From contig CALIBN010000012.1 in assembly GCA_938045545.1 (NCBI GenBank), forward strand, positions 1 through 64,000: 64,000 nt of DNA, written 5' to 3'. Both the position numbers and the translations under genes were made by a program. Positions 2,116 to 18,156 of the stretch are shown here, in pieces; position 1 is the first letter of the stretch, and each line of letters opens with the position of its first letter. This stretch comes from an uncultured archaeon. Its GTDB lineage: Archaea > Thermoproteota > EX4484-205 > JAAOZP01. The notes beneath the pieces were generated by a model that worked only from the letters and a program-made list of their open reading frames with translations, did not search any database and was not told where the DNA came from.

Positions 2116-3717
2116 ATGAAAGAGGAGCAACTCTCTGAGGAGGAATTACATGTGCTTGATATAATTACTAATCTGGCACCCTTATCGCAATATGAGCTAT
2201 CTGGATTCTGGATAACAAAGGATCGATCTTTCACACCGGATGCGTTAAAGGAGATTATAGATAAACTCCTACTATTAGGATTAATTTTAGTTGAGAAGGT
2301 CGGATATCAAACGAATATTTCGATGACTACCAATATGAGGGAAAAAGCCGTCCAGATACTAACTGAATTTTGGCAGCATAAGAATGTTAAGGATGAGATG
2401 CTCAGGACTATAGCTGAACAGAATTATGTTGGAGTGCTAAGATTCCTTGAACTAATATCATCGTATGCCGATAAGCCACGTGTTACATTCTCGGATTATT
2501 ACTTTGATTCCGAAGCGCATCATCTTTGCTTAGAGTTGTTAAGCAGTCGCATGGTGTTTAAGCACACATCGTCGAGTAGAAAACACTCTTATGAGGACTA
2601 TTATATCCGCAGGATTCCGATTGATGCGCAAGCATTTTTACAGACTTTTCTCTTGAGCAAACTTAATCCAGAAAGACTAGACCTTGAAAGCGATTGGAAA
2701 GTTTTAATAATTCCTCTATTTTCAGAAAAAAATGTAAAAATTTCAGATATCAGGCTTAACTTTCCAGCTTTGACGCAATATGAGATTGATGAGATTTTAG
2801 CCAGATTGGAGAAGAGGGGGATGATGGTAAAAGAGGGAGAGGAAATAAAGTTTCCTAAGGCCACTAAAGATATTATGAAACAATATTTTGCTGCAAAATG
2901 TTGGAGAGCATTTAAAGCTATGTTAATGCAAGATTTAAGAAGAAGAATAAGTGAAAGAAGCTCTAACTTGTTTTTCTTAGGACTAATAAAGAGATTGCTA
3001 ATTTCCGCGAAAGTTCAAAAACCGTTGGAACTGTTTTTTATTATCAGAAGAGATGAAGTGAAGAATGTTAACGAGGATGATCTTAAAGAAGCTGTTAAGC
3101 TTGGTGTTATTTTCCTAACGGAAAATGAAATTTTAATACCTCATGAAGTCCTTACTGATATAGAAGCTATACTCAGTTCTTCAATTTCAGATAAGGCCAT
3201 CATTAGAATACCTGCAGGTGACATATTTGCAGCGGTTAACAATTGGAGAAAAATCTTCAGTGAATGTAGGGACTATATTAAGATTCAGGACGAATGGGTG
3301 AATGAAGAAACTCTCCAAATAGTCCAGAGTTATTCGCCAATTGAAGTGGAGATCATAATTCTAACTGGTATAGAAAAAGCTAGAGACGTAGATATAGAGG
3401 AAATGAAACAAAGATTAGATGCGATAAGAAATTCGGGGAGAAAGATAGAATTGTTCTTCATTGGCTATGAATCGGGGAAAGCGCCTTTTCATTATAGGTA
3501 TATAATTGGTAAAGATGTTTGCTATTCTATCTCTACATCGATAAAGGATGTGGGAAAGTCTAAAGAAGCCGATTTCATACGCATTTCTAAAGAGGAAAAG
3601 GAGGGCCTTATAGAGCCAGCGTTTGACTACTGGATAGGTCTACCAAGGGAGAGGCTTAAGGAGAAGGGTATCAAGAGAATGAGTTTTGATCAATGGCTAG
3701 CATGTGCGCACTACTAG
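2116..3717 (+). CDS. 533 aa protein with C-terminal PLD-like domain, possibly defence-related
   Basis: C-terminal YIKIQDEWV...FHYRYII...YSISTSIKDVGK resembles the HDRFII..Y..G.S.KD.GK PLD-like motif. Low GC. Possible winged-helix segments upstream. Confidence 0.6.
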   Translation: MKEEQLSEEELHVLDIITNLAPLSQYELSGFWITKDRSFTPDALKEIIDKLLLLGLILVEKVGYQTNISMTTNMREKAVQILTEFWQHKNVKDEMLRTIAEQNYVGVLRFLELISSYADKPRVTFSDYYFDSEAHHLCLELLSSRMVFKHTSSSRKHSYEDYYIRRIPIDAQAFLQTFLLSKLNPERLDLESDWKVLIIPLFSEKNVKISDIRLNFPALTQYEIDEILARLEKRGMMVKEGEEIKFPKATKDIMKQYFAAKCWRAFKAMLMQDLRRRISERSSNLFFLGLIKRLLISAKVQKPLELFFIIRRDEVKNVNEDDLKEAVKLGVIFLTENEILIPHEVLTDIEAILSSSISDKAIIRIPAGDIFAAVNNWRKIFSECRDYIKIQDEWVNEETLQIVQSYSPIEVEIIILTGIEKARDVDIEEMKQRLDAIRNSGRKIELFFIGYESGKAPFHYRYIIGKDVCYSISTSIKDVGKSKEADFIRISKEEKEGLIEPAFDYWIGLPRERLKEKGIKRMSFDQWLACAHY

Positions 3718-3931
3718 GGAGATTTTCATCACCTTCGTTAATAATTCTTCCACAGTTTAGGGTCTTGACAATCGTTCTTATACGATTAAGATGGAAATAA
3801 AGGGCATCGCACGCTTAAAAAGCATGCTCCTGATGGTAACCCTCTTTATGTCATAAATCCTCAAAACATTGTTAGAGTGGTCGATGTTCCTAAAAAGCTG
3901 AAAGCTAAACTACCAGAAACTACTTCTAAAC

Positions 3932-4318
3932 TTGTATAGAGAGCGTGCGAAAGGCTACAAGCGAGTGAGTTTTGAAGTATCCTTAGAGGGGATAGAAGCG
4001 GAATTTTCTTCTGAAGAAGGAACATTGAGGATAATGTATGGAAGACGACCTATATTCATAAAGTTCAAGAACACGAAACATATGTACGAGTTCAAAAAGA
4101 CCCTTTCATACCTCGTTTACGAGATTCAACACCGTCCTAGGGAAGTCGTTCAATATAACATAGTTGTAAAGTTTAGCATAGACAAAGATGGAACGATATC
4201 CGTGCAGTGCCCACATTGCGGCGCCTCAGCCCCGCTACGCATTAAGGAGAGCGAAGTAACCTGTAAGTATTGCGGAAAACAGTATATTATTCCCAAGAAA
4301 CTCTTGGACTTAATCTGA
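3932..4318 (+). CDS. hypothetical protein with C-terminal zinc ribbon (possibly 5'-truncated)
   Basis: CPHCGA...CKYCG. Confidence 0.6.
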   Translation: MYRERAKGYKRVSFEVSLEGIEAEFSSEEGTLRIMYGRRPIFIKFKNTKHMYEFKKTLSYLVYEIQHRPREVVQYNIVVKFSIDKDGTISVQCPHCGASAPLRIKESEVTCKYCGKQYIIPKKLLDLI

Positions 4319-4322
4319 ACAC

Positions 4323-4817
4323 GTGCCAAGCCACATAATGTCAGGAGATTTAGGAATCCAAGGAGATGATGTGACAGATAAATCTGAAGGGAAAGAAGTA
4401 ATTAGGAGACCTCTAAGTAAGCCTAAGGAGTTGAGGATGAACTTGCTGAACTACTTTACTGACAGAAGGAACCTTAAAGACATAGGAGCCGTTAGCCCAT
4501 CGCTTGCTGAAACGTTGGAAAGACTGATAAACTATTTCGAGAGAAAGCGAATGGAAGGATTTGTGAACGTGGCTCTTCACCCAATTGGATACAGTGATTC
4601 ACCGCCGCTGATTTGGAGAATGAATCCTGAAGACAATGTGTGCGAGGAAGATGATGCTGTAGAGCTTGATGTTAAGACGACATGTGCTGTGAGACTGGAT
4701 TTCCGAGACCCCGGAAGCCCTGAGGTCGTTAAACTCGTTCCATCATGGCTGCCCCAATGCCTCACGGAGTATAAGGACGTTAAAAGAATCATGCTCGGAG
4801 GGTATAAACAAGACTGA
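4323..4817 (+). CDS. hypothetical protein
   Basis: 164 aa ORF; a diverged paralogous fragment lies at 969-1140. Confidence 0.6.
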   Translation: MPSHIMSGDLGIQGDDVTDKSEGKEVIRRPLSKPKELRMNLLNYFTDRRNLKDIGAVSPSLAETLERLINYFERKRMEGFVNVALHPIGYSDSPPLIWRMNPEDNVCEEDDAVELDVKTTCAVRLDFRDPGSPEVVKLVPSWLPQCLTEYKDVKRIMLGGYKQD

Positions 4818-5044
4818 GCCTCCTTATCTCAGGTATTTCACAGTAGAATGGCCGCCTAATACCGGTAGCCCTGAGAAGCGTATGCTAATCATAAGGTGTA
4901 CATACTGAGAGACTGCTCGAAATTAAAAAGGGGAGATAGCACTGAAGAGAAGCGCGCGTTATTTTTATATTCTTCTGTTAATCAGGAATATGTCTGGCAA
5001 TTGGCTACGTTAGATTTTTAAGCCTACAGGTCTAAACATTCCCA

Positions 5045-5407
5045 TTATGCTTGGGGAACGGATAAAAACGACCCTGGGGTGGGCTGGGGCTTCTGGGACA
5101 GTAAATGGCTCATTCTTCCTGTCATGTCAGCATAAAAATAGGGCTTTCCAAAGTCCAAATCAACATCCCATTCGGGTTTTGATAATAATCGTTTAATGGA
5201 GTATTTAGAAGCCGAGGTCATCACGCTGAAGGTAAATAAGTCGGTGTAAGCATGTTTATATGAACGTGCGACGATAATCCAATCCTTAGACTCCGTCTCC
5301 TTTTTAGCAAACCAGTCTCTGAATGATAAGAATGATAAAACGTCTAGCGTCTCAGGTTGTTCTTCAAAATCACGTACAACACTCGGGATTCTATTATTTT
5401 GACTCAT
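5045..5407 (-). pseudogene. N-terminal fragment of a hypothetical protein
   Basis: ATG start and protein-like first ~95 residues, then an apparent off-frame tail. Bounded by GCGC motifs at 4952 and 5430. Confidence 0.4.
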
Positions 5408-5591
5408 AATTATGCAAAATATGCCGGAACGCGCTTATTAACGTTTATGCTACAGCATTTCTTGATCCTAATTGCCGGCATTCCCTCTTTAAGATGCTAG
5501 ATTGCGTACTACGCAGGCTTCCATTTTATGTCTTCAGTCTTTAAATTTATAAAAAGGAAAAAGCGTTGAATATGGAGGCGATACATAAAGG

Positions 5592-7514
5592 ATGGATACA
5601 GCAGATTACAGTAAGAAGGCCGTGACAAAATCTATAGATATGATTTTCTCTTTCATAAATGTGTTGAAAATTGCTTCTGAAACCCATGAGTTTCGAAGAT
5701 GGCTTAAAAACTATCATAAGATAGAGAATGATGAAGATATCTTTGAGGGGTATAGGTTCTTTTTAATGATTTCTTTGAAGTGTCTTATTGAATCGATAGT
5801 TGATGACAGTGCATTAGAACTGGAAGAAGATGATGTCTTTTTTAGAGCAACAGCTGTTGGAATAGCATTAGAAGATATACCGAATACATGCGAAAAAATA
5901 ATTTTTATAAAAAACATTTGGAACCTAGCTAGGGGGATTCGGAAATCTAAAAACTGGGAGCAGCTTGAAGTCGACTTAAAAATCTTAGAGAAGCTATTTT
6001 TAGTATTTGATAGAATTCATGATAACATAATCCTCACAAGAAATATAAGTAAGGATGATGCCTTTCGAATAATTACAGAAGCTTACATTCATATTTTCTT
6101 AAATGATACGCAACGTATTTATCCACTCGGCAACATTTTATCATCAACCACTAAGAAATACCCGAAAAGATATTTAGATGCAAAAAATGTATTCAAAGGA
6201 TACGTATATTCTCTACAATATTTGTGGTTCATTTTATTAGGAGCAAATAGATTTGAAGAATCCTGCATAAAGAACTTACATAGAGCACCAGAAATCTATT
6301 CTGAAGAAATTGAAGACCAAGAACTTCGTAAGTTTTTTGCGGAATTCGAACAGATTTCCGAAAAGGGTTTAAAGAAAACAGGTAAAGAAAAACTATCACA
6401 AATAAAGGAATGGCTTGCCTTAGATAAATTCTTTTGGAAAATCGAAATGGAAATTATGGCACCAATAGAAAAAGAAATTAGAATGAAACTTACAATTGAT
6501 CCATTGCTATTACTTGAAAAAGTTGATAAATCCATTTATAGGGAACTTCTATCTAGGGATAATATAGAGGATCCTGAGTACCTACACAAAAATGACAAAA
6601 AATCGATCAAAAAACAACTTGACTACAATCTATTATGGTATGAGGTAAATACCCTCGATATCAAAGGAGTGACTATTTTTAGCGGCGTACCTGCCTTCAT
6701 TAACACTTTATTAGGCGCCATAGGATTAAAGGAATACTATGGTATTGACGAAAAAGTCTTAGTTAGAATTTTCAGGCACCCTACACCAGAAAGGGGAAAG
6801 TATGATTATAGTTTTGGTATAATTATAGGAGCCTATAGCGAAATTTCTGACTATTCTGGATGGTTGATATTCTTTAATTGTGCAACAGACTATTCTGGAT
6901 TTGGCGGCTCACTGTACAGGAGGACTGAACACTTCATAAGGAAATTTAGTGAAAAAGGATTAATAGAAGTAAAGGAATTTTTAATCGATAAAAACGTATT
7001 TAGAGAGTACCTAGCTGAAAGAGGTATATCCTCGGTTTATCAATTGAGTTTACCACTAATCAGGAATTATATAAGTAATTTTAAAGGGAGGTTCTTTGAG
7101 TATGTTTTTCATAAATGGATTAATGAAAGCGGCAAATACAATAGTACCAGGTGTGATTTTTATCTAGCTGGAGAAGAGATTGATTGTATTGGTATAACAG
7201 AAAACGAGATCGAAGTTTTTGAGTGTAAACTGGACTTACATATGAACGAAATTGATAAAACTATTGAACAGATAAGAAGGAAAACAGAAGTTATCAGGAA
7301 AGAAATGAAAAAGGATAATGTTAAACCAAATTTAGTGGTTTTTTACGATATACGTCCGAATTTGGAGTTAAAATTTAGAGGAGAAGGAATAAATGTTATA
7401 AAGAACTTCCGAGACAAGGTTAAAGATGACAGGATTTTTAATGGGGTAAGAAAAGAACTTTTAGAACTCTTGGACTACGGATTTATTAAAAACATTAGCA
7501 GATACAAAGCCTGA
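5592..7514 (+). CDS. 640 aa protein with C-terminal PD-(D/E)xK nuclease domain
   Basis: KGRFFEYVF...EEIDCIG...EVFECK motif; very low GC. Confidence 0.7.
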   Translation: MDTADYSKKAVTKSIDMIFSFINVLKIASETHEFRRWLKNYHKIENDEDIFEGYRFFLMISLKCLIESIVDDSALELEEDDVFFRATAVGIALEDIPNTCEKIIFIKNIWNLARGIRKSKNWEQLEVDLKILEKLFLVFDRIHDNIILTRNISKDDAFRIITEAYIHIFLNDTQRIYPLGNILSSTTKKYPKRYLDAKNVFKGYVYSLQYLWFILLGANRFEESCIKNLHRAPEIYSEEIEDQELRKFFAEFEQISEKGLKKTGKEKLSQIKEWLALDKFFWKIEMEIMAPIEKEIRMKLTIDPLLLLEKVDKSIYRELLSRDNIEDPEYLHKNDKKSIKKQLDYNLLWYEVNTLDIKGVTIFSGVPAFINTLLGAIGLKEYYGIDEKVLVRIFRHPTPERGKYDYSFGIIIGAYSEISDYSGWLIFFNCATDYSGFGGSLYRRTEHFIRKFSEKGLIEVKEFLIDKNVFREYLAERGISSVYQLSLPLIRNYISNFKGRFFEYVFHKWINESGKYNSTRCDFYLAGEEIDCIGITENEIEVFECKLDLHMNEIDKTIEQIRRKTEVIRKEMKKDNVKPNLVVFYDIRPNLELKFRGEGINVIKNFRDKVKDDRIFNGVRKELLELLDYGFIKNISRYKA

Positions 7515-7530
7515 GTCCTATTTTTCAAGA

Positions 7531-8106
7531 TTACCTAATCAATAATCCCTTCTGAATCAACTCGTTCATGAGTTTCTCAGCGGCATCATAAACCATCTTC
7601 TCGTTAACAGCACCAGTACATACAAGTTTCCCAGAAGCAAATAAAAGTATAACTACATCTGGATCATGCATTCTATATATAAGGCCCGGGAACTGCTCTG
7701 GTTCATACATTGTTCTTTCTAGTGTGGTGACTGCGTGTTCGAGGTCTATTTTTCCGGGTAGTGTTGCTGATGCTACGATGTTTTGTACGGTGATTTGTGG
7801 TTTTGTTTTTCCTATTATTTTTTTGTTTCTGAGTTCTCTTACGATTTTGTGTACTGCTTCGTGTGCTTGTTTTTCGCTTTTTGCTCCTGTTGACACCATT
7901 TTTCCTGAGCTGAAGATTAGTGTTGCGGTTTTTGGTTTTTCTAGTCTGAATACTAGGCCGGGGAATTGGTCTGGTTTGTATTCTACGTTTTCGAAGTTTC
8001 TGACTATCATGTTTAGGTCTATTCTTTGGTCTAGGATTACTGATGCTACTACGTTTTGGATTTCTACTATTGGTTTTTCCTCGGTTTTTTTGGTTTCCTC
8101 GGACAA
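7531..8106 (-). CDS. tbp: TATA-box binding protein
   Basis: Two TBP repeats (NVVAS...YKPDQFPGLVFR...LIFSSGKMVSTGAK and NIVAS...YEPEQFPGLIYR...LLFASGKLVCTGA); TTG start. Confidence 0.98.
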   Translation of the reverse strand: MSEETKKTEEKPIVEIQNVVASVILDQRIDLNMIVRNFENVEYKPDQFPGLVFRLEKPKTATLIFSSGKMVSTGAKSEKQAHEAVHKIVRELRNKKIIGKTKPQITVQNIVASATLPGKIDLEHAVTTLERTMYEPEQFPGLIYRMHDPDVVILLFASGKLVCTGAVNEKMVYDAAEKLMNELIQKGLLIR

Positions 8107-8490
8107 TGCTCTGTTTATAAAGGGGGTTTTGACTATTTAAATATTGGTTTAGGATGGTTTGTTGGTATGTTTTCGCCTTTTTAACGGGTTTTTCCGGGTT
8201 TTCTCGGGCTTTGTTTTTTCCTCGGCTTCATGGTGGTTGACGTGGGGAAATGCTTGCAAACTTTTTTCAAATTGATTCAGAAGTGTTTTTTGTTAGATTT
8301 TTAATTAATTAGTGTTGTCATTTCGGGTCTTGCGGGGTGGGTGGAATATTTGGGTTTTAAGGGTTTTAGAGTCTTGTTGGAAAGGGTTAGGCTGGGTTTA
8401 AGGATGGTTCTGGCTGGTGTTGTCTCCTGCTTCTGGGGCTTAGGCGTGAGGTCACGTTTTTAAGCCTTTATTTTTTCTGGAATTAAGAGT

Positions 8491-8892
8491 ATGGATGGAT
8501 ATGGGGAAATAACTGTTAGAGGCAGGGTTTCTAGTGGGGAAGGTAAGGGGGGCTTTTTCGTCAGCAGACCTTGGGTAATGAGACAGATTGTGGAGAAGCT
8601 TGGTTTCGAACCATATCCTGGGACGCTCAACATCAGACTGCCGCCGGAATACGTTTTCGCCAGAAGGAGGCTGGATAGTCATCGTGGAGTTAAAATAGTG
8701 CCTAATGAGGGCTTCTATCCCGGTAAGTGTTTTAAAGCAATAATAGCTGGAAGAATCGACGGGGCCATTGTGATTCCTGAAACTCCCCTTTATCCTGAAG
8801 ACTTGCTGGAAGTAATAGCTTCCTTCAATCTGCGTAAGGAACTGAAAACCAAGGATGGGGACGAGGTAGAGATTACGATACTACTTGAATAA
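8491..8892 (+). CDS. ribK: archaeal CTP-dependent riboflavin kinase
   Basis: GRVSSGEGKG, LGFEPYPGTLN, EVIASFNLRKEL..KDGD. Confidence 0.92.
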   Translation: MDGYGEITVRGRVSSGEGKGGFFVSRPWVMRQIVEKLGFEPYPGTLNIRLPPEYVFARRRLDSHRGVKIVPNEGFYPGKCFKAIIAGRIDGAIVIPETPLYPEDLLEVIASFNLRKELKTKDGDEVEITILLE

Positions 8893-9261
8893 AACGATTA
8901 CTGTTTGAAATATCTAGAGTAATTCTAAGCAATATGACGTTTATTACAGCTGTGGCTATGAAGATATGGCTGCTAGAACAACTGTAATGAATGCTTTTCA
9001 ACCATCCGAGTCTAGAAATGTTTTATTAATGCCAACCAAATTATGAAAGGAGTCGAAGTCTCAATCAAACCATGTAGGAAATATCCTAAAGCTACATCTA
9101 GAATATCCTTCCAAGGGCTGTCTCTTCGGTTTTAACTATTCCACAGTAGCGCGCCCTGGATCGTTGTTCTTGGAGTAATTCCGTGAATTCTAGCCAATTT
9201 GGATGTGTACATGTAAAATTTTAAATACTTCCATTAGCTTCTATTTTATTGGTGGAATGGT

Positions 9262-9471
9262 TTGCCGTTGGTTCAGGTTTCTGTTTGGGCTGGCATAAGC
9301 CTAGAAAGTAAACGGAGGATCGTTCAAGGAATTACTAAAGTGTTTGAGGATATAGGGGTCCCCAAAGAAGCTGTAGAAATAATCATCTACGAAGCGCCTA
9401 AAACGAATTGGGCAACAGGCGGACAACTTCATTCAGAATCAGAGAAGCTTGCAAAGACAAAAATACCATAA
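9262..9471 (+). CDS. 4-oxalocrotonate tautomerase family protein
   Basis: N-terminal catalytic Pro, 69 aa, KRRIVQGIT and NWATGG. Confidence 0.9.
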   Translation: MPLVQVSVWAGISLESKRRIVQGITKVFEDIGVPKEAVEIIIYEAPKTNWATGGQLHSESEKLAKTKIP

Positions 9472-9497
9472 CTACGCATAAAAACACGGTGCGCGCT

Positions 9498-9532
9498 ATT
9501 TCTACTATTGGTTTTTCTGCTTCTGCTTGCAT
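9498..9532 (-). pseudogene. orphan 5' fragment of a tbp allele (MQAEAEKPIVE)
   Basis: 20 bp identical to tbp 8060-8079; 34/35 identical to 11199-11233. Confidence 0.8.
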
Positions 9533-9567
9533 TTTGAAATAAGCTTATATACAGCCATTCTGTACAA

Positions 9568-9807
9568 ATGTGTAAACGATGGTTTTCTGAAGCGTTAAGC
9601 ATCAGGATAAGGAGGGATGTTAAGAGGAGGATGAGGGAGTTGAGGGATGTGGATTGGAGGAGGGAGATAGAGGGTTTCATTGAGATGAAGATAAGGGAGA
9701 GGGAGTTGTTGAAGGCTCTCGGTATGATCGATGCGGCCCTCTCCGGGGTTCAGGCCTCGAAGGAGGCTGCTTGGCAGACTGTCAGGGAGTTCAGGGAGAA
9801 GAGGTAG
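9568..9807 (+). CDS. RHH/VapB-type antitoxin
   Basis: SEALSIRIRRDVKRRM...VDWRREI; lies upstream of a PIN gene. Confidence 0.75.
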   Translation: MCKRWFSEALSIRIRRDVKRRMRELRDVDWRREIEGFIEMKIRERELLKALGMIDAALSGVQASKEAAWQTVREFREKR

Positions 9808-10238
9808 GGGTCTTGCAGGTTCTTGATTCGAGCATTTTCGCCAGCATAGTGGTGAAAGACGAGTATTATGATGAGGCTGTTAGTTTTATTAAGAAACACC
9901 TGAGGCGGGAGAATGCTACGCTTGAGCTGGCCTTCATAGAGACTGCTAATGTTTTGTGGAAGCATGTCTCCGTGTTTAAGAGGATGCCTGAAGACAGTTT
10001 TGAAACGTTGAAGAGCAGTATAAAGCCTTTGATGAACAACGCGGCGCAGTTTTACAGCAGCCTGGATGTTTTAGAGGATGCCCTGGATAATTCGGTTAAA
10101 TACGGGTTCTCCGTGTATGCTTCCCTGTATGCTACGCTGGCCTTGAGTTAAAAAATGTAGTTAATGAGCTTCGATGAAAGGCTGAAGAATATGCTTGTTG
10201 AAAGGGGCTTGGAAAGCGTTTTAGCGTCTGACGCGTGA
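9804..10238 (+). pseudogene. VapC PIN toxin, inactivated
   Basis: VLDSS..E..N motif present. The conserved YD is YA. In-frame TAA at 10149-10151 and a nearby TAG precede the LMSFDERL tail. Confidence 0.75.
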
Positions 10239-10465
10239 AAGACACGTTGATGGGCAGCTTCGAATTCAAAACAGTGAAAATAGCCTGTTGGTAAAATCTT
10301 CCTAAATCCTCTTTTTTTCTCCGTAAAAACCCGTATTAATTATTATTTTTGTTACCTAATAAACGGAGAATTTATATCCTCTTTATAAATACCCCGCTTG
10401 AATATTTAAAATATTGGTTTTCTAGACTTTATGGTTTAGGGGTGTTTTATTAGGGTTGAGAGGAA

Positions 10466-10505
10466 TTAGTGCGCACTAAGAAAATTTTTAAACACATGTG
10501 TGCAC
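10466..10505 (+). promoter_or_regulatory. palindromes around the TATA box of vapBC
   Basis: Perfect TTAGTGCGCACTAA at 10466-10479, TTTTTAAA box, then ACACATGTGT and GTGCAC just before ATG 10515. Confidence 0.55.
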
Positions 10506-10514
10506 TTATAAATT

Positions 10515-10730
10515 ATGGTTAAGACTATCACTATAAACGACGAGGCCTACAGGGCTTTGGCCGAGCTTAAGGGAGAGGGTGAGAGCTTTAGCGAGGTTAT
10601 AATCAGGATTCTTAAGGGGAGGAGGGTTAATCTGGGGGATTTCTACGGAGTGTTTCGCGATAATGCGGATCTCTGGCTGAGGATTGAGAGGGAGATTCTG
10701 GAGGGTAGGAGGAGGGCTTCTTTGCGATGA
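10515..10730 (+). CDS. vapB: VapB antitoxin (DUF217-like)
   Basis: KTITINDEAYRALAELKGEGESFSEVIIR. Confidence 0.9.
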   Translation: MVKTITINDEAYRALAELKGEGESFSEVIIRILKGRRVNLGDFYGVFRDNADLWLRIEREILEGRRRASLR

Positions 10731-11134
10731 GGCTGCTGGATACTTCGGCTATAATTAGTGTTCTGAGGGGGGATGCTGAGGCTAAGAGTATTCTGGGGAA
10801 GCCTGCTGAGGAGGGGCTTTGCACGACGACGATAACGCGTTTCGAGCTTTTCTCCAGAATATACCATAGGGGGCTTCTAAGGGAGGGGAGGGTGGTTAGG
10901 AGGCTGGTTAAGGGCCTGGTTCTCTTGCCGTTTGACGAGGAGTCTTCGGAGAAGGCTGCTGAAATCATGGGGTTCTTGCTTAGGGCGGGCAAGGCTGTCA
11001 ACGTTATTGATGTTTTGATCGCCGGCATCGCTGTGGCTAACGGCGTTGAAGAGATAGTGACGAGGGACAGGGATTTCAAGACTATTGAAGATATTTACGG
11101 CCATATGAAAGTAGTTTTGCTTGCTGGAGACTAA
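10727..11134 (+). CDS. vapC: VapC PIN-domain toxin
   Basis: LLDTS, E, DVLIAGIA, TRDRDF; ATGA overlap with the antitoxin. Confidence 0.92.
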   Translation: MRLLDTSAIISVLRGDAEAKSILGKPAEEGLCTTTITRFELFSRIYHRGLLREGRVVRRLVKGLVLLPFDEESSEKAAEIMGFLLRAGKAVNVIDVLIAGIAVANGVEEIVTRDRDFKTIEDIYGHMKVVLLAGD

Positions 11135-11160
11135 TTCTTCTTTGAAGAGAATGCGTACGC

Positions 11161-11233
11161 TATTTTTGGCTAGGATAACTGATGCTACTACGTTTAGGAT
11201 TTCTACTATTGGTTTTTCCGCTTCTGCTTGCAT
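11161..11233 (-). pseudogene. orphan 5' fragment of a tbp allele (MQAEAEKPIVEILNVVASVIL)
   Basis: 11170-11219 matches tbp 8031-8080 at 48/50 nt. Confidence 0.85.
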
Positions 11234-16369: not shown

Positions 16370-16551
16370 CTAACTAAACAATCTGGGGAAACTAGGCTTT
16401 AGAATTAGGGTTTGCGCGCCGGGTTTTACCCTCTTTTCCTAAGTTTTATTGGTTTTCTTCTCTATCGGCTTTTTCTCTAGGTTTTTTAAGCTGATTGCTT
16501 CTATCCTTCATCTTTTTCCGCTTTTCGTTCAGCTTCCGACTTGCAGCTTAG

Positions 16552-17004
16552 TTAAGGTGTTAGCTGGTCTGGCGTTATGATTGTGTCTTTCAAACCCTTC
16601 ACACGTATGAATTCCCTTAGCTCTTTATCTAATGTGAGCAGTTTCAGGTTGAAATGGGCTGAGCTTGCGTAGAGTAGGTTGTCAACCATATCTCTGTGGC
16701 CTAGTGAGTAAAGCCTTAGGGCCTCGTTGAAGACTTGAGGATCCTCCTTGACTTCCCCGTACCTGCCGCTCTCCATGATGCTTCTCAGCCCCGTGTTGAA
16801 AGCATCGTCTACGACTCCGCCTGTTAGCTTGGCTACCACCCAGAGTGCCTCTAATATGCTGAAGCGTGAGTAGAGTGTTTCTACACCAGTTTCCGCAAGC
16901 TTCTTTAAGCCTTCAACAGCCTCTCTTCCAACATCGATCCCGAGGGAGGGGAGTATGAAGGATGTATCAAGCAGGATTCTCAGTCTGTTTTGCCTGCTCC
17001 TCAA
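16552..17004 (-). CDS. vapC: VapC PIN-domain toxin
   Basis: ILLDTS, SILE, DMVDNLLYAS, LTLD. Confidence 0.88.
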   Translation of the reverse strand: MRSRQNRLRILLDTSFILPSLGIDVGREAVEGLKKLAETGVETLYSRFSILEALWVVAKLTGGVVDDAFNTGLRSIMESGRYGEVKEDPQVFNEALRLYSLGHRDMVDNLLYASSAHFNLKLLTLDKELREFIRVKGLKDTIITPDQLTP

Positions 17005-17439: not shown

Positions 17440-18156
17440 GTGAGAAGCGAGAGGCTCATCAGGATGCTGCGGGATTCTAGGCTTAGTGTTTTTTCTCTAG
17501 GCGATCTGGTGAGGATTTTGAATAAGGATGAGGGTTATGTCAAGGTTTTGCTGAATAGGCTTGTGGAGAGAGGTCTTCTGGTTAGGGTTGAGAGGAACAA
17601 GTATTCGCTTCCGGGTCAGAGTGTTTTCAGCGTTGCTTCTCTTCTTGTTTTCCCTTCCTACGTTTCCTTTATTTCAGCGTATTCTTACTATGGTTTGACT
17701 GTGCAGATTCCTTCAACGGTTTTCGTCGTCTGCTTGAGGCAGAGGAAGGAGGTTTTCTATGAGGGGTGCCGGGTTAGGTTCGTTAAGTTTTCTAGGAGAA
17801 GGTTCTTCGGGTACTTGAAGGAGTATGTGGAGGGTAAGACGGTTTTTATCGCTGAGGTTGAGAAGGCTGTTCTGGATAGTCTGCTGCTGCCGAGGTATTG
17901 TCCTGTGTCTGAAACTTTTTCAGCGTTGAGGGAGGCTGGGTTGAACCGTGAGAGGCTTCTGGAGTATGCTGTGAGGCTCGGCTCGAGGGTGGTGGTAAAG
18001 AGGCTTGGATACTTGCTGGAGCTTGCCGGCCTGGATGTTTACCCTTTTTTGAAAAGCCTTGTCGATAAGAATTATGAGCTGCTTAATCCTCTTAAGCCTT
18101 CTGTTGGCGAGAGGGTTGAGAAGTGGAGGCTCATTGTTAACGAGGTGCTTGAGTAA
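17440..18156 (+). CDS. AbiEi-type (type IV TA) antitoxin / transcriptional regulator
   Basis: N-terminal wHTH, PSYVSFISAYSYYGLTVQIP, EKAVLDSL, KRLGYLLE; GTG start after TTTAAATA. Confidence 0.88.
   Translation: MRSERLIRMLRDSRLSVFSLGDLVRILNKDEGYVKVLLNRLVERGLLVRVERNKYSLPGQSVFSVASLLVFPSYVSFISAYSYYGLTVQIPSTVFVVCLRQRKEVFYEGCRVRFVKFSRRRFFGYLKEYVEGKTVFIAEVEKAVLDSLLLPRYCPVSETFSALREAGLNRERLLEYAVRLGSRVVVKRLGYLLELAGLDVYPFLKSLVDKNYELLNPLKPSVGERVEKWRLIVNEVLE

Follow-up and report, generated by a model that had tools for sequence, protein, structure and literature searches.

An intense one-strand skew that begins inside the TATA-binding protein gene of an uncultured archaeal genus

The gene for the TATA-binding protein (TBP), tbp, of an uncultured hot-spring archaeon of the Thermoproteota (GTDB lineage EX4484-205; JAAOZP01; assembly GCA_938045545.1) consists of two parts whose synonymous sites differ drastically in composition, the border between them falling between two neighbouring codons. 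The locus raises the question of how such a switch arises and is maintained inside a working gene, and why it is situated at this particular nucleotide. The sequence was analysed in a window of 64,000 nt (contig CALIBN010000012.1, positions 1 to 64,000 of the forward strand), in which tbp occupies positions 7531..8106 on the minus strand. As detailed below, the switch constitutes one end of a tract of intense one-strand skew, occupies an identical position in all members of the genus that were examined and has counterparts of both polarities in other core genes.

The switch within tbp and its conservation

According to the list of open reading frames (ORFs) and Pfam, tbp comprises 191 codons including a TTG start, and its 191-aa product matches the TBP family PF00352 over two repeats (E 9e-61). 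The coding strand of codons 1-133 (7708..8106, minus strand) is saturated with A and C, the third positions being A in 87, C in 39, G in seven and T in none of these codons (95% A/C). G is confined to the start codon (TTG), two GAG (codons 3 and 9), three ATG (codons 33, 70 and 133) and one GTG (codon 71). Codons 134-191 and the stop (7531..7707, minus strand) are devoid of this skew, and their third positions (A13, C6, G16, T23) feature a mild excess of G/T (39/58). The two parts thus counted differ in G/T versus A/C endings with a Fisher p of 3e-19, and the recount reproduced exactly the hand count of the initial annotation, which had reported no T- and seven G-ending codons among codons 1-133 and 23 T-ending codons among the last 58. 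First and second codon positions of the skewed part retain G and T. Among 9115 windows of 133 codons in the 1606 ORFs of the genome, whose third-position G+T averages 0.527 with a standard deviation (sd) of 0.065, codons 1-133 of tbp constitute the sole window at or below 0.12, with a value of 0.05. The switch site between codons 133 and 134 (7707/7708) is located in the most conserved TBP block, MYEPEQFPGLIYRM.

The skew continues beyond the start codon into non-coding DNA. On the plus strand, positions 7708-8480 contain 72% G+T compared with 50.1% in the contig, and display a GC skew of +0.31 together with a TA skew of +0.52. Within this stretch, the coding part exhibits skews of +0.19 and +0.56, respectively, while the 384 nt of intergenic DNA that separate tbp from its divergent neighbour (8107..8490) show 72% G+T and skews of +0.44 and +0.45. 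Opposite the 3' part of tbp the corresponding values are -0.28 and -0.06, the sign changing at 7707/7708. A three-state hidden Markov model (HMM) places the whole tract at 7710..8561 on the plus strand (852 nt), and its keto skew peaks at 0.47 in 300-nt windows, compared with a genome mean of -0.003 (sd 0.076; 40,259 windows). These values bear out the initial description of a plus strand saturated with G and T from about 7708 into the non-coding DNA. The far end, which had been put at ~8480, is about right, as the skew fades across the first ~20 codons of the neighbouring gene for a CTP-dependent riboflavin kinase (8491..8892, plus strand; Pfam PF01982). In this gene a G/T lean of 70% is confined to the first ~20 codons, and the value amounts to 30-60% in four relatives; in view of this weak and short lean, an influence of tbp adjacency on the skew of the riboflavin-kinase gene was discarded. 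From 7708 to ~20000 the plus strand is mildly G/T-rich (~56%).

Comparison of tbp across the genus was based on seven full-length genes, while the partial genes G001, G004b/c and G013, which are located at contig ends, were used solely for the tree of the 3' part. Homology searches yielded solely 3'-fragment hits in G003, G007, G010 and G011 and none in G005, G012 and G014; G015, with a match of 41% identity that contains an internal stop, was left out of the set. The orthologues of six genus genomes are 91-95% identical, a degree of protein conservation that is read as purifying selection removing amino-acid changes. All six other full-length genes contain only 4-20 G/T-ending codons among the first 131-133, compared with a third-position G+T of 35-61% in the 5' part of 13 tbp loci from other families (calculated from the counts). 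Upon alignment, the switch falls on the same nucleotide in nine sequences from eight assemblies, which comprise the seven full-length genes together with a partial gene and a named record of identical sequence, at ...AGAAAGAACAATG/TATGAACC... The fixed starting point within tbp that the initial annotation had envisaged is therefore shared by every genus member examined. The nearest named records are metagenome-assembled genomes labelled Candidatus Brockarchaeota and Bathyarchaeia.

A concern raised at the outset was that A/C-ending codons might represent the general codon bias of highly expressed genes in this genome. With respect to whole-gene third-position G+T, tbp is lowest among the 1606 ORFs (0.24), and the gene of elongation factor EF-1a is highest (0.87), with that of EF-2 at 0.75. 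EF-1a and EF-2, both of which we take to be highly expressed, hence show the mirror image of tbp, and because of this opposite skew the pattern is not a general bias of highly expressed genes.

Skewed tracts and their mutation pressure

In total, the HMM detects 20 tracts that add up to 7437 nt of the 2.03 Mb genome, the tract of tbp being the second longest. Genus-wide checks covered tbp, ppsA, EF-1a and EF-2, with loci of other families serving as outgroup, and in each case the skew is present throughout the genus and absent from the outgroup. At tbp (7/7 genus and 0/13 outgroup loci) the sense strand is A/C-rich in codons 1-133 and in the upstream DNA; at ppsA (10/10 and 0/8) the share of G/T amounts to 5-30% over a stretch that starts upstream of the gene and extends to about codon 440. 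EF-1a (13/13 and 0/11) is dominated by G/T-ending codons, which reach 85-100% in the closer species, and EF-2 (13/13 and 0/13) displays a sharp onset at about codon 100 and fades toward its 3' end; in both elongation factor genes the skew begins only after the first ~100 codons. The base spectra are mirrored, with A>>C>G>T~0 in tbp and ppsA and T>G>>C>A~0 in EF-1a and EF-2. The G/T-rich strand of tbp and of the two elongation factor genes is poorest in A (0-0.3%) and next poorest in C (3-13%). Since the upstream neighbours of tbp differ between species, the polarity of the skew goes with the gene and is a property of the gene, not of its neighbourhood. Moreover, the skewed state is old, being common to all examined species of the genus.

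A comparison of the sister species G002 and G008 shows that mutation pressure is live and the tract edge moving, because the changes in their non-coding tract are both numerous and directional. In this tract (-450..-50) 77 of 361 sites differ (21%), compared with 48 of 1200 (4%) in the upstream flank (p = 4e-22), a fivefold difference. On the sense strand of tbp, T or G in G002 is paired with C or A in G008 at 34 sites, while the reverse applies to eight; read on the plus strand, such T>C and G>A changes become A>G and C>T. With motif copies outside the tract as reference, at least four of these differences are, by eye, new T>C changes in G008, and in G008 the divergent neighbour is affected as well, at its 5' end. 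Across the species, the far end of the tract upstream of tbp varies from -100 to -500.

Within the gene, A<->C exchanges account for 306 of 562 third-position differences of the 5' part, summed over 21 species pairs, and for 9 of 440 in the 3' part. Therefore, G and T stayed excluded while the sites turned over. Rare codons including ATA are freely used in the tract genes, which argues against translational selection, and the composition of the protein is pulled only slightly: residues with A/C-only codon stems make up 34-36% of TBP in the genus and 27-34% outside it.

One of the two explanations offered by the initial annotation was repeated exposure of the plus strand as single-stranded DNA, which would accumulate deamination. 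The direction of change fits this proposal, but the base most lost is adenine rather than cytosine, and G<->T exchange is common. A raised rate of A<->C exchange in the tract, as suggested by 8/402 versus 2/1041 between G002 and G008, was abandoned as a claim after comparison with EF-1a, where G<->T exchange per site is no higher in the skewed part than in the unskewed 5' part. A loss of the repair of deaminated bases in the genus was likewise rejected, given that endonuclease V is encoded in 15 of 16 genus genomes as well as in the present one, and uracil-DNA glycosylase (UDG) in 15 of 16. In this genome, which is 92% complete, the UDG family PF03167 was not found, and neither were the reverse transcriptase PF00078 nor the cytidine-deaminase fold PF00383. 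One Y-family polymerase is encoded, as usual.

Further tracts were observed outside the genes compared above or extend beyond them. On contig C8 (99000-106630), ~7 kb of A/C-rich plus strand stretch over genes of both orientations, the peak and the contig end lying in ppsA. On C26 (4568-5017), the polarity reverses at 4895/4896, where two short tracts meet between divergent genes, each of which has a G/T-rich sense strand.

Mobile 3' fragments and the origin of the tracts

The 3' segment of tbp from codon 141 to the stop (7532..7686, minus strand; 155 nt) also occurs in the form of free fragments. Five extra copies are present in this genome (C8:6966-7088, 8061-8207, 9501-9655 and 16499-16636; C16:16414-16514), with a nucleotide identity of 74-89%. 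The copy on C16 is situated directly behind rpl2 in a ribosomal-protein operon. In relatives as well as on C8, fragment homology begins at the GGYCTWATWTAYAGRATGCATGATCC block, and this start (7686) lies 21 nt past the switch. Altogether, 33 copies of the 3' part were counted in nine stretches examined, those in arrays being spaced at 1-3 kb. Each fragment in the arrays (C8; L212-L219 in relatives) follows one or two small genes, which on C8 appear toxin-antitoxin-like by eye, and many array fragments feature a common conserved flank on the element side. At G004:C40, tbp is followed by ~6.2 kb and then by a fragment, an arrangement that resembles integration into the 3' end of the gene.

A displaced 5' fragment of tbp is found at 11160..11233 (minus strand). 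It extends from the start to about codon 25, is A/C-rich and matches 8019-8080 with 93.5% identity over 62 nt; it reads MQAEAEKPIVEI..., thereby resembling the N-termini of relatives, and its MQAEAEKP appears ancestral. Besides the riboflavin kinase gene, the intervening DNA (8081-11159) encodes a tautomerase and VapBC-like pairs, and the arrangement suggests that it was inserted by a single crossover on the tbp 5' piece, bringing a new 5' end and promoter. Taken together, the five 3' copies, the arrays in relatives and this 5' fragment lend substance to the earlier idea that tbp acts as a recombination anchor.

Codons 1-133 of tbp and ~380-450 nt of upstream DNA represent one of ~20 tracts in which one strand has been driven to G and T almost wherever sites can vary; in our judgement, the chances are about even that repair synthesis is the cause. 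On both sides of the switch, the G/T-rich strand is the one that runs 5' to 3' away from it: third-position G+T of the 3' part amounts to 0.60-0.74 in the seven genus genes, i.e., the polarity flips mildly and the minus strand leans to G/T. Three geometries are compatible with a G/T-rich strand that extends 5' to 3' outward from a fixed point, namely divergent transcription, a local origin, and synthesis from a break or nick, among which repair synthesis outward from a hotspot is favoured at modest odds. According to this mechanism, a break or nick would recur at a hotspot in tbp, and the plus strand would be re-synthesised, or bared as a nascent single strand, outward during recombinational repair, every round adding A>G and C>T to the plus strand. 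Hypermutability is reported for the nascent single strands that trail a migrating repair bubble (PMC6765108).

Three features of junction type lie within 25 nt in tbp, namely the switch at codon 133/134, the fragment start at codon 141 and inserts of a sister family at codon 136/137. The latter are found in tbp of G018 and G020 (L220, L221), which contain a 30-nt insert with an in-frame TAG twice in identical form, at equivalent sites of both TBP repeats, YKP/..QFPG and YEP/EQFPG, one of them 9 nt from the position that the switch takes in the present genus. The tbp insert can form an 8-bp hairpin, the fold energy of which is not unusual (z = -1.07). EF-2 of G020 (L185:1501-3639) features a short insert with TAA inside AH/VDHGKT. 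Judging by their sequences, the inserts of tbp and EF-2 look like mini-introns in the most conserved motifs. A broader proposal, in which a recombination or cleavage hotspot in this conserved block, where cassettes dock, would start recurrent kataegis-like synthesis with a hypermutated nascent strand that over the lifetime of the genus recodes the silent sites of tbp, ppsA, EF-1a and EF-2, is tentative and taken as a whole doubtful.

Several observations weigh against repair synthesis from a hotspot. The G/T lean of the 3' part lies only ~1-2.5 sd from the genome mean, and the sharp borders of EF-1a and EF-2 come without a polarity flip. Since no fragment copies of EF-1a, EF-2 or ppsA occur in this genome, a mobile-element hotspot is documented for tbp only, and at 31 of 33 fragments the upstream flank has a G+T content of 44-55%, i.e., the neighbours of free fragments are unskewed. 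Resected 3' tails would predict the opposite polarity, so that the model needs nascent-strand damage or polymerase error, and no nuclease was linked to the switch site of tbp. Furthermore, at least 10 of the 20 tracts have a G/T-rich sense strand with an onset near the 5' end of the gene, which points to transcription, and on the sequence data selection on DNA or RNA retains a small share of the probability.

Asymmetry caused by transcription appears unlikely as the general cause, although it survives better than the other alternatives. Here, the G/T-rich strand would be the non-template strand (exposure of the R-loop type), and at tbp an antisense or divergent RNA would start ~27 nt after a TATA-like word within the codons for LIYRM. 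Beside the sense-strand tracts just mentioned, EF-1a and EF-2 speak for it as the top two real genes in whole-gene third-position G+T. The antisense TATA-like word TATATATAA is located at 7674..7682 (plus strand), 26-34 nt before the onset of the skew, with TATATA at 7674 and 7676. Throughout the genome, such words are most frequent at a distance of 26-35 nt from the start codon that follows, so that the expected RNA start falls at the switch. In addition, the upstream neighbour is divergent at 7/7 genus loci, and a TATA-like word occurs at -50..-10 in 5 of 20 tracts compared with 9.6% of random places (p = 0.036). On the other hand, the sense strand of tbp is A/C-rich, contrary to a non-template strand of this kind, and a similar antisense TATA-like word is present in unskewed tbp of other families, such a word hence being insufficient for skew. 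An antisense transcript would moreover encounter 18 runs of at least five T within 783 nt of the tbp plus strand, the first at nt 42, while the sense tracts of EF-1a and EF-2 contain none; efficient halting of archaeal RNA polymerase at five to six T is reported in PMC2253867. Nor is it expected that the skew of EF-1a and EF-2 skips the first ~100 codons and that rpl2 (C16:15631-16362) leans the opposite way, to A/C endings (third-position G+T 0.31). The idea that a free tbp fragment serves as a portable antisense promoter was rejected, since the gene on its 5' side is mostly co-oriented (21 of 33; divergent in nine cases and lacking in three) and the flanks are unskewed.

An improbable alternative is replication asymmetry, by which the G/T-rich strand would be the leading one and the tracts would mark lagging template that stays single-stranded for long, with a pause site or an origin at ~7708. 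The sign change at 7707/7708 is origin-like, the milder plus-strand G/T excess continues to ~20 kb, and the skew at 99-106 kb of C8 covers genes of both orientations. Yet Orc1/Cdc6 genes are encoded only on other contigs (C51 and C23), and positions 7000-9000 hold no origin-type repeats. Furthermore, the polarity travels with the gene though its neighbours differ by species, and opposite polarities are encountered in close proximity, in tracts separated by 4 kb on C19 and directly adjoining on C26. A fork that pauses at a barrier would, moreover, leave its sharp edge on the other side.

Selection on the sequence itself, e.g., for a non-folding mRNA or DNA strand or for particular codons, is highly improbable as the source of the skew. 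It would account for a skew that is held genus-wide despite A<->C turnover and for a border at the same nucleotide in nine sequences. The sense tracts of EF-1a and EF-2 avoid T runs, and some RNA-level selection therefore acts beside the skew. However, equally essential genes have opposite polarities, the skew runs into non-homologous non-coding DNA of varying length, ATA and other rare codons are used, and 34 directional substitutions per 361 nt between sisters are hard to ascribe to selection site by site.

Just as improbable is a pure recombination seam, by which the halves of tbp would derive from sources of different composition without any local process. The 3' end of tbp does have a history of its own, and mobile fragments form a pool with which its sequence is exchanged. 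In the comparison of G002 with G008, the 3' part has diverged by 11.9%, threefold more than the 5' part (3.5%) and the flank (4.0%; p = 2e-4 and 6e-5), and the DNA downstream of tbp is unrelated. Distances of the 5' and 3' parts are uncorrelated (Spearman 0.30, p = 0.19, 21 pairs). Separate trees of codons 1-133 and 134-191 show little branching order, the pair of G002 and G008 being supported in the former and not recovered in the latter, and in the weakly resolved 33-row tree of the 3' part, of whose 30 inner branches 19 are open, tbp-attached and free copies are intermixed. This history accounts for a seam close to the switch without explaining the skew. All seven genus genes are skewed in the 5' part, all 33 attached or free 3' parts range from 0.45 to 0.75 in third-position G+T, and neither an unskewed allele nor an A/C-skewed 3' copy was seen among them, which speaks against the recombinant of two alleles put forward by the initial annotation as the cause of the skew. 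A joint of alleles at 7707 is equally at odds with the free fragments, which begin 21 nt beyond the switch. Moreover, the non-coding edge of the tract changes directionally at present, and the skew also affects genes without fragments.

Finally, the chance of an assembly chimera or sequencing artefact at 7707 is negligible: the 3' part of tbp is repeated and Logan contigs over 7707 extend just 10-17 nt past it, none bridging it by a 31-nt rule, so that the case rests on the independent assemblies, but the junction nucleotide is identical in the nine sequences from eight assemblies, the frame of tbp is intact and its protein conserved.

Known systems and further features of the locus

The closest description of such tracts is that of GRINS, which are duplicated (>80% identical) regions in polyketide-synthase clusters and other multi-copy genes (Nivina et al. 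2021, PMC8256042). GRINS are recent and differ between related clusters, and single-copy skewed regions are mentioned as well (PMC8256042); a word search of the main text of that paper did not retrieve 'archaea'. GRINS share with the present tracts intense GC and TA skews of the same sign with one G+T-rich strand, a focus on third positions, abrupt borders, a size from below one kilobase to the order of a kilobase, both polarities, and a coding function that is kept with a small amino-acid shift, the mechanism being unexplained in both cases. In terms of the features that delimit GRINS, the tract of tbp exceeds 500 bp (773 nt by eye, 852 nt by HMM), its mean skews (+0.31 and +0.52) have the same sign and both surpass 0.15, and the skew resides in third positions of a gene whose product is a full TBP. 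Duplication at >80% identity is lacking, as the genome contains no matches of the tract other than the one at 11160-11219 (93.5% over 62 nt) and that between the two TBP repeats of the gene itself (68% over 152 nt). The tbp tract also differs in being a single-copy part of a core information-processing gene that is orthologous and stable across the genus, in extending into non-coding DNA and in its archaeal host.

Saturating local one-strand skew within working genes, as earlier described for bacterial polyketide-synthase repeats with a cause that is not known, is hence encountered here in single-copy, essential and orthologous archaeal genes, in both polarities and with one end fixed to the nucleotide genus-wide. 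Because one edge is visibly moving between sister species, the origin of the tracts becomes a comparative problem: their ends can be dated, their spectrum polarised, and their polarity compared with replication, transcription and mobile-element junctions. If the broader proposal of recurrent kataegis-like synthesis is true, islands of the GRINS type would be scars of locus-anchored repair synthesis, of which this genus would provide orthologous and datable examples. In practical terms, synonymous sites of EF-1a, EF-2 and tbp are not neutral clocks in this lineage, and contigs tend to break near skewed genes; about 8 of ~15 tracts from a 300-nt skew scan lie, by our own reading, within ~1 kb of a contig end.

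Other systems resemble the tracts in single respects. In vertebrate mitochondrial DNA one strand is A/C-rich and G is nearly absent from free sites, which is ascribed to deamination of single strands during replication. The strength is comparable, but mitochondrial skew affects the whole replicon, while tracts like that of tbp measure a few hundred nt. Cytosine is the most depleted base of the exposed mitochondrial strand, whereas adenine is rarest on the G/T-rich strand here. Transcription-associated asymmetry, including the GC skew of promoter R-loops, is characterised by a G+T excess of the non-template strand that sets in at the transcription start and fades downstream. Many shorter tracts of this genome match this picture; on the contrary, tbp and ppsA have an A/C-rich sense strand, and their skew is near saturation. 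Integrative elements dock in the 3' ends of genes, as at tRNA genes, and bring along a replacement 3' end. In likeness to these, inserted DNA lies between direct partial copies of the 3' end of tbp, and tandem arrays have arisen, though the target is a protein gene and the units comprise 1-6 kb with mostly toxin-antitoxin-like genes. The modules of the window itself yield PIN/VapB Pfam matches, and no integrase match was obtained when four ORFs with 100 or more codons downstream of tbp (2116-7511) were scanned against Pfam. Kataegis, which accompanies break-induced replication or repair (PMC6765108), likewise consists of strand-coordinated changes, which are borne by a strand synthesised away from a break and span hundreds to thousands of nt. 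It differs in that single events within one cell line are involved rather than a saturated equilibrium as long-lived as the genus. Word searches for 'GRINS' and 'intense' in a 2026 survey of archaeal skews (PMC12999951) and for 'skew' and 'codon' in the description of the Brockarchaeota (PMC8065059) gave no hits, and on these searches of the two papers we did not find the tract described.

With regard to the surroundings of tbp, a promoter-like block, AACCAATATTTAAATA, lies upstream of the gene at 8134..8149 (minus strand) and is kept in eight aligned genus loci with an upstream region; the intergenic alignment across the genus is limited to the ~100 nt nearest to tbp. An antisense ORF of 138 codons without a Pfam match (7724..8140, plus strand) is best read as a by-product of the A-poor strand; its third positions and those of tbp coincide, as follows from frame arithmetic on the coordinates. 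Rfam lists no family within 7000-9000 (E <= 1) and no match for the DNA beside EF-1a (E <= 0.1), and by eye tbp, EF-1a and EF-2 have no motif in common at their 5' borders. The 3' end of tbp (7540-7560) and the upstream intergenic tract (8272-8292) are linked by an inverted repeat of 21 nt (86% complementarity), which may be due to chance. The second tract of the window, assigned by HMM and Pfam, is located inside an AbiEi-type antitoxin gene with a G/T-rich sense strand (17462..18051, plus strand). The G/T-rich 3' flank of EF-1a (C35:3460-3692) shares ~90 conserved nt with a non-coding G/T-rich tract at C45:880-1348.

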